Shown piece by piece: positions 3,155-22,426 of a stretch of DNA of 64,000 nt (its first letter is position 1; every line of letters starts with the position of its first letter). Position numbers and translations under genes: made by a program. The notes under the pieces are model-generated. The model ran no database searches and was not told the origin of the DNA. It saw only the letters and a list, made by a program, of their open reading frames with translations. Location: NCBI GenBank assembly GCA_050013255.1, contig JBEKFP010000001.1, positions 288,001-352,000 of the forward strand. Direction: 5' to 3'. The stretch is from Candidatus Bathyarchaeia archaeon (GTDB lineage Archaea > Thermoproteota > Bathyarchaeia > 40CM-2-53-6).

Positions 3155-3267
3155 GGAATGAACTTTACGACTGGAATGAGTCAGTTCATTTCCTCCTCCA
3201 TTCGCAGACTCGCTCACTCACTTTCGGTCTTCGACACGCAAAGTAAAAGGCTTAGTAGAGAAAATTC

Positions 3268-3457
3268 TGGCGGGCCCGCCGGGATTTGAACCCGGGACCC
3301 TTCCCCAAGAAGGCTTCTCGGCCGGTTTCTTTTCGGGTGGCTTCCCATGGGTTCTAAAAGCCCAGAGGTAAAAGCATCACCGACACCCGCTCGGCGTCTC
3401 CGATGCTCTACCTTTTCAGGATCCAATTTCGAAAGGATCTGACTGAGCTACGGGCCC
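3268..3457 (-). tRNA. tRNA-Lys(TTT) with four introns (17/17a, 30/31, 37/38, 43/44)
   Basis: Removing 3414-3440, 3376-3399, 3339-3368 and 3301-3332 at BHB-type bulges gives a 77-nt cloverleaf GGGCCCG..TCGGG-CTTTTAA-CCCGA..CGGGCCC-G-CCA. Confidence 0.88.
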
Positions 3458-3509
3458 CGAAGGCTCACAGCACGGACCACTATCAAAAGCGTTTCGCACG
3501 TATGAAGTT

Positions 3510-4740: not shown

Positions 4741-4845
4741 TGGCGCCCTTCGCCAGGAGAAGCCTAGGCTGCTCCTTTGGGCGGGATTCGAACCCGCGTC
4801 GACGACGTGACAGGCCGTCATCCTAGACCACTGAACGACCAGGGC
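4741..4845 (-). tRNA. tRNA-Asp(GTC) with an intron in the 3' acceptor strand (68/69)
   Basis: GCCCTGG...ACGGC-CTGTCAC-GTCGT. Removing 29 nt (4749-4777; BHB helix CGCC/GGCG, bulges CAA and AAG) restores CCAGGGC-G-CCA, 76 nt. Confidence 0.9.
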
Positions 4846-5071
4846 ATCGGCATCCCAGAAATCGCTGTGCCAGCTTAAAGCATTGCTACAATATACACTC
4901 CCGGAACAGAGAAGACGCCTACCTTACGCTTCTTCGCAAGGATGTGACGAGATACGGACTCATATTCGATTATGTTGCTAATCATTGTCGCGGCGCTGAT
5001 TCTTGTACCAGTCATCGTAGCCTACGCACATGTTCGTCAACGCCTGCTTGAAAGAATCTTTAAGAATAATT

Positions 5072-6793: not shown

Positions 6794-6929
6794 ACTTATC
6801 GTGCCCGAGTCGAATAGAGTTTCTTCTAAGGGTTGTTTCTAATTCCTTGCATTAGCAAGAAGCTTGAGAAATCATTCATTGTCTCTAACCTTAAGTTGCT
6901 AAATATCGCAGCCGACAAAGACAAACAAA

Positions 6930-9510: not shown

Positions 9511-9664
9511 TGGTCCCGCGGGCCGGATTTGAACCAGCGACGCTCCGGTTTCCGTTGTTAGCCTAGTAGGCTGACATGGGTACGCCTTGGGCGCACACCT
9601 ACAGCGTCTCCGTCGCTCCGAATAAGAGAGACTCGGAAGCTCTACCAGGCTGAGCTACCGCGGG
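9511..9664 (-). tRNA. tRNA-Tyr(GTA) with two introns (30/31, 37/38)
   Basis: CCCGCGG/CCGCGGG acceptor with A73. Removing 9606-9633 and 9550-9598 gives TCCGG-CTGTAGA-CCGGA, 77 nt. Confidence 0.9.
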
Positions 9665-10955: not shown

Positions 10956-11070
10956 TGGCGGGCCCGCGGGGATTCGAACCCCGGATCCCAGGCTTTCACC
11001 GCATCCGCTCCGAAGGCTTACACGAATCTGACGCATCTCTGTGTCTTAATCCTGGCTCGACTACGGGCCC
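10956..11070 (-). tRNA. tRNA-Arg(TCG) with two introns (29/30, 37/38)
   Basis: Removing 11018-11038 and 10995-11009 gives CAGGC-CTTCGGA-GCCTG; CCA encoded. Confidence 0.88.
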
Positions 11071-13906: not shown

Positions 13907-14470
13907 ATGGAGAACAACCCCAGCGCAGCACCTCAAACTCCCGCGCAAGTCCAAGAAAAACCACCGTTTACCCCTTGGATCGCGGTGTCCGGCCCGGGTT
14001 TGGTATACCTACCCTACAAATCTGAACTCATGGAGCTTAGGGACCGAGGATTCGGCGACCTCCGGAACGACAGGCTTGTCCTTTCTCCGTACGAATCATT
14101 CTACCTTCTAGAGAAACAGAAGATTCGAGTGTTTGCCAAGGATGCAAGCCGGGAGTTGGAGCTTCGAGACTTAGTCCAGAAGTATTCAGTTGGCAAACCC
14201 GAGATCTGGATCAAGTACTTGGTCTACCGTGACCTACGGGACCGTGGGTACATAGTCCGCGAGTCCACTAAAGCCTTCGACTTTGACATTTACGGAAAAG
14301 GGCCGCTGAGGCGTTTAATCTCAATCGTTTACGAAGGTGGCGAAGCGAGCCTTCAGAAATTAAGTAAACTGCTTCAATATTCTGACAAGGAGAAGAAGGA
14401 ATTGATACTAGCCGTTGTTGACAGGCGGACCGACATAGTGTACTATACGTTGAGTTCGTTGAATGTCTAG
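13907..14470 (+). CDS. endA: tRNA splicing endonuclease subunit, probably the structural (beta) subunit
   Basis: LSPYESFYL, YLVYRDLRDRGYIV and LILAVVD..DIVYY motifs; no His at the catalytic-His position. Confidence 0.82.
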   Translation: MENNPSAAPQTPAQVQEKPPFTPWIAVSGPGLVYLPYKSELMELRDRGFGDLRNDRLVLSPYESFYLLEKQKIRVFAKDASRELELRDLVQKYSVGKPEIWIKYLVYRDLRDRGYIVRESTKAFDFDIYGKGPLRRLISIVYEGGEASLQKLSKLLQYSDKEKKELILAVVDRRTDIVYYTLSSLNV

Positions 14471-22024: not shown

Positions 22025-22174
22025 TGGCGGGCCCGCGGGGATTTGAACCCCGGACTTCTGTACCAGTGCTGGGCTGGTTCTACAGCTTTTTCCGGGTGTT
22101 CCTTAGGGGGTTCGGCAACAAATTCCGCTTTCTCAGCGGAGCCTGCCGCTCTATCCAACCTGAGCTACGGGCCC
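22025..22174 (-). tRNA. tRNA-Arg(CCT) with three introns (30/31, 37/38, 45/46) and genomic C33
   Basis: A20 in the D-loop. Removing 22111-22142, 22088-22103 and 22056-22079 gives GCAGC-CCCCTAA-GCTGT-AGGTC, 78 nt. Confidence 0.8.
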
Positions 22175-22264: not shown

Positions 22265-22426
22265 GCGGGGATACCCGAGCCAGGTCAAAGGGGCAGGACC
22301 ACCCGGCGTGGTGGGGCCACACTTAAGATCAGAACTTGCCTTGGGTGACGAGAAGACATCCTGTGGCGTAGAGCCAGCGGATGGGCGCGTAAGCCTTCAG
22401 GGGTTCGAATCCCCTTCCCCGCACCA
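22265..22426 (+). tRNA. tRNA-Leu(TAA) with three introns (30/31, 37/38, variable arm)
   Basis: Removing 22298-22320, 22328-22357 and 22372-22392 gives an 88-nt class II tRNA: CAGGA-CTTAAGA-TCCTG, V-arm GGC-GTAG-GCC. Confidence 0.9.

Follow-up and report, generated by a model that had tools for sequence, protein, structure and literature searches.

A tRNA-Lys(UUU) gene of peat and soil Bathyarchaeia divided by four short BHB-type introns into five exons, two of them of 7 and 6 nt

Transfer RNA genes that carry several BHB-type introns are known from the Thermoproteales, from Asgard archaea and from the nucleus of Cyanidioschyzon merolae. The tRNAscan-SE 2.0 paper (PMC8450103) states a maximum of three introns per tRNA gene, the same figure that an earlier note on the DNA described here had given. 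A 2024 study of Asgard archaea (PMC11291895) includes intron-4 columns in its Supplementary Data 4, where, for example, an Atabeyarchaeia Lys-TTT gene is given four introns by tRNAscan-SE and three by R2DT, and a preprint (10.64898/2026.10.13.758758) reports up to five introns per gene in Asgard archaea. In light of these calls, the suggestion of the earlier note that four introns in one gene may be new does not hold. BHB motifs are cut after the second nucleotide of each 3-nt bulge (Marck and Grosjean 2003, cited after the same preprint), and in C. merolae the order of intron removal correlates with motif stability (PMC3728597). A literature search returned no paper on tRNA introns of Bathyarchaeia, and term and literature searches found no mention of this group in either the preprint or PMC11291895. 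With the gene described below, a phenomenon already known is found in a further lineage; the gene type itself is not new.

The gene lies at 3457..3268 on the minus strand of the window, by which we mean the whole stretch of 64,000 nt that was analysed. It is about 190 nt long and comprises five exons and four introns, all colinear, with exon lengths of 17, 14, 7, 6 and 33 nt and intron lengths of 27, 24, 30 and 32 nt when read on the minus strand. On that reading, the exon/intron segmentation of 3268-3457 proposed earlier proved exact. Exon 1 (3441..3457) supplies the 5' strand of the acceptor stem, U8 and A9, the 5' strand of the D stem and the D-loop up to C17. Exon 2 (3400..3413) runs from A17a to G30 and includes the remainder of the D-loop, the 3' strand of the D stem, A26 and the first four nucleotides of the anticodon stem. 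The two micro-exons follow, with exon 3, GCUUUUA (3369..3375), contributing G31, C32, U33, the anticodon UUU and A37, and exon 4, ACCCGA (3333..3338), contributing A38 and the 3' strand of the anticodon stem (39-43). Exon 5 (3268..3300) holds the variable loop, the T arm, the acceptor 3' strand, the discriminator G73 and an encoded CCA. When joined, the exons give 77 nt that form a full cloverleaf and are called tRNA-Lys(ttt) by ARAGORN, as expected from the earlier claim that splicing yields a canonical Lys(UUU) of this length. The spliced 77-mer has a 7-bp acceptor stem, a D stem GCUC/GAGC with a 9-nt loop containing GG, an anticodon stem UCGGG/CCCGA enclosing the loop CUUUUAA, a variable loop GGGUC, and a T arm CCGGG-UUCAAAU-CCCGG, followed by the discriminator G and CCA. 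Its cloverleaf is computed at -36.0 kcal/mol, versus -38.5 kcal/mol for the minimum free energy (MFE) fold.

The locus is easily overlooked. A whole-genome search with the Infernal tRNA model under permissive filters covered 187 nt of it end to end, with a score of 31.8 bits, but the gene was called neither by ARAGORN without introns nor by Rfam at the gathering threshold, both of which found only the neighbouring tRNA-Asp. Its five exons follow one another in order on a single strand, within 190 nt, so this is not a split or permuted tRNA gene. Self-splicing introns of groups I and II possess a ribozyme core of hundreds of nucleotides; the introns here measure 24-32 nt, and no Rfam intron family matched within the window. 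At least half of the words of the locus are held by contigs of 17 peat or wetland DNA runs, which shows that the arrangement is not an assembly artefact.

In the BHB register used throughout, a 2-nt exon bulge is preceded by four exon nucleotides, and these pair with the four intron nucleotides that precede the last two of the intron. A BHB-like motif in correct register is found at each intron, with the same four central helices that the earlier note had named. All four junctions have two 3-nt bulges on opposite strands, whose placement gives the exon junctions, and all four introns have a flanking inner helix h' (5, 6, 2+4 and 5 bp, respectively) that covaries across congeners. The eight cut positions in the precursor, marked by hyphens in the bulges below, are those predicted by the motif definition. 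Intron 1 (3414..3440), located in the D-loop at 17/17a, has the central helix UCAG/CUGA (4/4), bulges UC-A and AA-A, and a 5-bp inner helix GAUCC/GGAUC. Its boundary could be slid by +1 or +2 nt with no change to the product, and it is the BHB register that selects 3414..3440. Intron 2 (3376..3399), at 30/31, has the central helix CAUC/GGUG (4/4, one G.U), bulges GG-A and AU-G, and a 6-bp inner helix GACGCC/GGUGUC. Intron 3 (3339..3368) occupies the canonical 37/38 position, with the central helix CUUU/GAAG (4/4, one G.U), bulges UA-C and CC-A, and an inner helix of 2+4 bp with one mismatch. Under the chosen boundary A38 is constant in all lineages, while a shift of +1 would yield a variable position 38. 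Intron 4 (3301..3332), at 43/44, has bulges GA-A and AA-G and a 5-bp inner helix AAGAA/UUCUU; its central helix ACCC/GGGG pairs at only three of four positions owing to an A.G mismatch, whereas six congeneric copies have the full 4/4 helix (ACCC/GGGU).

The spacing of these motifs accounts for the size of the micro-exons. The three 3' motifs adjoin head to tail with zero spare nucleotides. Exon 3 is made up of 1+4+2 nt, namely the third nucleotide of the preceding 3' bulge, the central-helix strand of the next BHB and two bulge nucleotides. A120 has two roles, as third nucleotide of a BHB3 bulge and as first, mismatched position of the BHB4 central helix, and because of this double use exon 4 is one nucleotide shorter than exon 3. 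Tiled in this way, the two micro-exons (7 and 6 nt) match or fall just short of the smallest exon that can provide a complete exon side of a BHB (1+4+2 nt).

A DNA search of 40 relatives, combined with a pattern scan of GTDB species genomes, recovered 40 copies of the architecture, 22 of which are distinct. The copies reside in MAGs named Bathyarchaeia or Bathyarchaeota, from soil, peat and sediment. Across the 22 distinct congeneric copies, 72 of the 77 exon columns are invariant (16/17, 13/14, 7/7, 5/6 and 31/33 for exons 1 to 5) and pairwise identity is 99.2%, as compared with 39 of 113 invariant columns and 72% identity for the introns. In the congener alignment, the 37 proposed BHB pairs are paired in 95.6% of cases, versus 36-52% once the 3' partner has been displaced by 1-3 columns. 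Compensatory double changes are seen at seven BHB pairs, a count reached by none of 500 shuffles. The inner helix of intron 1 shows one compensatory change, from A-U to G-C, and that of intron 2 shows compensatory double changes at four of its five pairs. One relative, L011, has U27 changed to C in exon 2 and A43 changed to G in exon 4, each being the sole change in that exon. This compensatory change within the anticodon stem couples two exons that are 61 nt of DNA apart. Judged by these alignments, the BHB geometry of the four junctions is far more than chance would produce.

The two outer introns vary in their distribution. Intron 1 is precisely missing in 9 of the 22 distinct congeneric copies, which read an uninterrupted GCTCAGTCAGGTAGAGC at that place. 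On a gene tree built from the remaining columns, only one branch of which has strong support, the presence or absence of this intron (A1 columns 18-46, L001-L051) is scattered and requires seven changes. For instance, the close pairs L003/L005 and L017/L020 each differ in this respect. AG microhomology flanks the intron. We tentatively regard this pattern as repeated precise loss of intron 1 within the genus. Intron 4, on the other hand, occurs in every copy from the genus, and none of the other lineages that the pattern scan recovered has it. Other Bathyarchaeia genera (L028, L062) keep introns 1-3 and lack intron 4, and in the genera without it (L028, L032, L062) ACCCG(G/A) runs straight on into the variable loop and T arm. 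Since these relatives read ACCCG next to the variable loop, the identity of micro-exon 4 is fixed, and the presence or absence of introns 1 and 4 thereby fixes the outer introns independently of any motif. The GCUUUUA micro-exon, lying between introns at 30/31 and 37/38, also recurs in further Bathyarchaeia and among MAGs of other archaea.

Two further features came to light in the same comparison. Intron 3 holds GGGCUUUUAGAACCC (3349-3363, minus strand), which nearly repeats the mature anticodon arm and includes GCUUUUA. The near copy is confined to this genome and the four relatives nearest to it (L001-L005), the loop sequences of the other congeners being unrelated, and it may reflect either chance or local duplication. 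Copies of this archaeal Lys gene were also present on short contigs of MAGs with bacterial titles, namely Acidiferrales, Acidoferrum, Methylomirabilota and Nitrospiraceae (L031, L033, L046, L051), which is most likely a matter of binning contamination in those MAGs.

The earlier note had proposed a check for another Lys(TTT) gene. A BHB-plus-cloverleaf finder, applied to 489 of 4393 acceptor-pair seeds and to each of the 36 seeds whose T arm is intact, returned no second Lys(UUU) gene. Among the 36, the anticodon UUU came from this locus alone, and a pairing of Lys-like acceptor and Lys-like T arm was seen nowhere else in the genome. From these searches, the Lys(UUU) gene is likely to be unique in the genome. 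Lys(CUU) is encoded separately (G000:C1:855328-855465), and two of its three introns lie at 30/31 and 37/38, as in Lys(UUU).

The finder, which is heuristic, solved 26 tRNA genes of this genome and counted 54 introns in them altogether. Its first pass failed on eight real tRNA-like seeds, Lys(CUU) among them, which was solved after a rule change; under a relaxed rule two of the failed seeds have no solution and several are ambiguous. The finder also favours, at times, a long 'variable arm' over a further intron (as in L022, L048 and L054). Subject to these properties, it assigned four introns to Leu(CAG) (G000:C1:524981-525175, minus strand) and four each to Pro(GGG) and Pro(CGG) (G000:C3:122293-122472 and C1:1387439-1387614, both plus strand). 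The 229-nt Trp(CCA) gene (G000:C2:632656-632884, plus strand) needs five or six excisions, and at least five. These genes also speak against the suggestion that four introns may be new. Within the window, a cluster of tRNA genes occupies 9511-9664 (-), 10956-11070 (-), 22025-22174 (-), 22265-22426 (+) and 4771-4846 (-). By the finder, it includes Tyr(GUA) and Arg(UCG) with two introns each and Leu(UAA) with three, along with one 150-nt gene that has a Lys-like acceptor and for which the finder gave no parse; tRNA-Asp lies there too.

A TATA-box-like element, UUUUGAUA (3481..3488, minus strand), ends 24 nt upstream of tRNA nucleotide 1 and is preceded by an A-rich, BRE-like stretch. The motif CTTTTGATA is found at equal upstream distance in the congeners L026, L027, L034, L040 and L050. 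By analogy with archaeal promoter architecture, the element is a putative promoter. Downstream, a T-rich tract, UUUUCUCU (3257..3264, minus strand), begins 4 nt after CCA and likely acts as a transcription stop, as in archaeal oligo-T termination.

The genome also encodes the enzymes that such a precursor would require. There are two EndA homologues, both of which match PF01974 and PF02778. One is a beta-type (structural) subunit of 187 aa (13907..14470, plus strand) with no His at the corresponding DHAPF position. The other is an alpha-like (catalytic) subunit (G000:C2, L067:1213-1785) with a conserved Y/H/K context, whose closest solved structures are the crenarchaeal chains 3p1z_B (the best, E 1.5e-38), 2cv8_A, 3ajv_B and 2zyz_B. 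The two would make up the pair expected of a broad-specificity (alpha-beta)2 enzyme, with their assembly predicted from subunit type. RtcB is present as well, with a match of 494 bits. The RtcB match (G000:C1:110968-113778, minus strand) falls in two blocks about 1.4 kb apart, covering 1-60 and 49-426 of the Pfam model, and both blocks lie within a single open frame of 1039 aa, which suggests that this RtcB contains an intein.

RNA data and folding were considered next to the genomic evidence. In the contigs of three metatranscriptome runs sharing few words with the locus, no spliced or joined form of the gene was seen; what these contigs contain are copies that belong to relatives, all unspliced and set in foreign flanks. 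One contig of 176 nt joins exon 1 to exon 5 by way of 47 other letters and belongs to a different Lys gene. The MFE fold of the precursor (-86.6 kcal/mol) uses slipped registers rather than the BHBs. Behind the slipped registers are UCAGUCAG and GGUGAUG, each of which has two pairing frames. A structure containing all of the BHBs comes to -54.5 kcal/mol, roughly 30 kcal/mol less stable. Because bulged motifs are always penalised in such calculations, the MFE fold is not counted against the BHBs. The four minimal HBh' motifs, together with the acceptor and T arms, can be written as one nested structure.

Simpler readings of the same DNA have to be weighed against a gene with four introns. The earlier note had allowed for a better parse with fewer introns, and two candidates were in fact found, both of which the comparative data speak against. 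One is the output of ARAGORN in its intron-permitting mode, c[291268,291457] Lys(ctt) i(28,119), a 71-nt 'Lys(CUU)' with identical ends and a single 119-nt intron. The other, listed among the top solutions of the BHB/cloverleaf search, is a 78-nt tRNA with three introns, where a 58-nt intron extends from 37/38 to inside intron 4 and the anticodon stem becomes UCGGG/CUUGG. That either of these is the true parse strikes us as extremely improbable. The one-intron solution makes its D arm and anticodon stem out of intron 1, which is missing in nine congeneric copies. The three-intron solution requires an anticodon stem with three G.U pairs and, for a class I tRNA, a variable region of 9 nt, and it hides ACCCGA inside an intron, even though five of the six columns are invariant, the sole change is compensatory with exon 2, and orthologues without intron 4 place ACCCG immediately before the variable loop. 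The second GCUUUUA, within intron 3 at 3349-3363, was also tried as the true exon 3 and was rejected, as there is no BHB at that place and the copy is missing in most congeners. It is likewise highly unlikely that the locus is a decaying or non-functional relic, with Lys(UUU) decoding left to some other gene or to Lys(CUU) on its own. Such a relic would fit with its being missed by tRNA finders at default settings and with the mature RNA not being observed in the metatranscriptome contigs, and the second-gene search extended to 489 of 4393 acceptor-pair seeds and 36 intact-T-arm seeds. Nevertheless, a relic would hardly retain 72 of 77 exon columns unchanged over 22 copies with introns that are 72% identical, or acquire compensatory changes in its splice helices and anticodon stem, or keep a promoter-like motif in common with congeners, and the search over those seeds found no other UUU candidate. 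Under standard wobble rules, moreover, Lys(CUU) cannot decode AAA.

We conclude that the locus is very probably a functional tRNA-Lys(UUU) gene, the sole one as far as searched, with four HBh' introns that are spliced by EndA and RtcB. Its sequence anatomy, conservation and covariation, the polymorphic presence of its introns and the presence of the enzyme genes are established. Transcription, cleavage, ligation and any order among these events we infer as follows. A single precursor of about 190 nt would be transcribed from the TATA-like promoter and would present the four introns, at 17/17a, 30/31, 37/38 and 43/44, as relaxed HBh' motifs. Each of these would consist of a 4-bp helix between the exon end and the intron 3' end, two 3-nt bulges cut after nucleotide 2, and then an intron-internal helix. 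Eight cuts would be made by the genome-encoded, heteromeric splicing endonuclease of the (alpha-beta)2 type, and RtcB would join the exons into the canonical 77-nt tRNA with its genomically encoded CCA.

Whether the four introns must leave in sequence is a separate matter. The earlier note had held that splicing must be ordered because neighbouring BHBs compete for nt 32-41. This is not compelled, since all four minimal HBh' motifs fit the one nested structure and competition is thus not compulsory; the overlap with neighbouring motifs is limited to the extended outer helix of BHB2 and to A120. An obligatory order with one intron removed at a time, for example intron 2, then 3, then 4, is in our estimate rather doubtful, although several observations point toward it. 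Ordered intron removal is documented in C. merolae (PMC3728597) and in the tRNAscan-SE 2.0 paper (PMC8450103). A possible outer helix for intron 2, formed by AGAG of exon 2 and CUUU of exon 3 in an hBHBh' arrangement, would take up the CUUU at nt 84-87 that is the central helix of BHB3. For intron 3, the anticodon stem becomes an outer helix only once intron 2 is gone, and A120, as noted, is common to BHB3 and BHB4. Local motif energies rank intron 2 as the most stable (-11.4 kcal/mol), ahead of introns 1 (-8.5), 3 (-4.6) and 4 (-2.4). Weighing against an obligatory order, besides the compatibility of the minimal motifs, is that the crenarchaeal-type (alpha-beta)2 EndA accepts HBh' motifs without an outer helix; nor were splicing intermediates seen. 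Simultaneous cuts at neighbouring introns would free exons of 6-7 nt, which makes one-at-a-time splicing a reasonable supposition. From the modelled structures, removal one at a time, perhaps with intron 2 ahead of intron 3, is plausible.

Lys genes of other lineages are also heavily interrupted. By hand reading, Lys(UUU) of Bathyarchaeia SMAG_U6295 (L054, region 6826-6890) has four introns, at 17/17a, 30/31, 37/38 and 48/49. The corresponding genes of 'archaeon YF1.bin89' and of a Centralia MAG titled 'Thaumarchaeota' (L022, L048), again read by hand, have introns at 30/31, 37/38 and 48/49 and one in the T loop, and that of a Nitrososphaerota MAG (L052) appears, on the same kind of reading, to be still more interrupted.

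A different arrangement is seen in a DPANN clade ('Nanobdellati'/Nanohalarchaeota MAGs), where a single Lys tRNA gene carries two tandem anticodon loops (L021:2568-2648, plus strand; L036, L037, L038, L045, L056 and L059; gene in L079:71-209, minus strand). A GCTCTTA (CUU) loop in phase with the 5' anticodon stem is followed by a GCTTTTA (UUU) micro-exon, and two splice paths can be drawn with one common 3' site. The path to UUU takes out two introns one after the other, the first of 21-45 nt (inner helix 2-5 bp), and each has a central helix of 4/4. The path to CUU takes out one long 37/38 intron (central helix 3/4), for which four of six sequences have a TACA(G)/(C)UGUA inner helix. ARAGORN calls the gene Lys(ctt), as opposed to Lys(UUU) by our finder, and a further Lys gene did not turn up in three DPANN genomes of this clade. 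From sequence, the tandem loops may permit cis alternative splicing into two isoacceptors, or one of them may be a relic in a genome that needs Lys(UUU) only.

Extreme fragmentation of tRNA genes reaches beyond the hyperthermophilic Thermoproteales and a few Asgard families to the abundant Bathyarchaeia of peat and soil. Default annotators miss or mis-parse such genes; to illustrate, ARAGORN and Rfam missed this locus, and ARAGORN with introns allowed gave the wrong anticodon. As a result, the tRNA complements and completeness estimates of such MAGs will be wrong. The congeneric series, with intron 1 present or precisely absent, intron 4 specific to the genus and splice helices that covary, provides clean natural data for following how introns are gained and lost. 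The gene is also informative on how small an exon the endonuclease/ligase system tolerates. A bolder proposition, which we rate at slightly under an even chance, is that this genus rivals the Asgard record holders in tRNA fragmentation, that the tiled BHBs of Lys(UUU) represent a physical limit at which overlapping helices would impose one-at-a-time splicing and so protect the micro-exons, and that precise loss of the D-loop intron has occurred repeatedly within the genus.

Compared with described systems, the gene has features of each and is identical to none. Like the nuclear tRNA genes of C. merolae, it has BHB-type introns in multiple positions, which in that organism are the D arm, 37/38 and the T arm; unlike it, those genes belong to a eukaryotic nucleus, hold at most three introns and, in the accessible portion of PMC3728597, are described with no comparably small micro-exons. 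Its genome shares with the Asgard archaea (PMC11291895, 10.64898/2026.10.13.758758) a level of about two introns per tRNA gene, many D-arm introns that annotators miss, and the occurrence of four-intron genes, while the host phylum differs (Bathyarchaeia/Bathyarchaeota). As for the Thermoproteales (Pyrobaculum, Thermofilum and Caldivirga; Sugahara et al. 2008, as summarised in PMC8450103), the likeness lies in having several short BHB/HBh' introns at canonical and non-canonical positions, closely spaced and, in those organisms, processed by a heteromeric (alpha-beta)2 EndA (PMC8450103). The gene departs from them in having four introns, as against the maximum of three published there according to that paper, in belonging to a peat and soil lineage of Bathyarchaeia that is not cultured, and in its micro-exons of 7 and 6 nt, which are bounded by three tiling BHBs.
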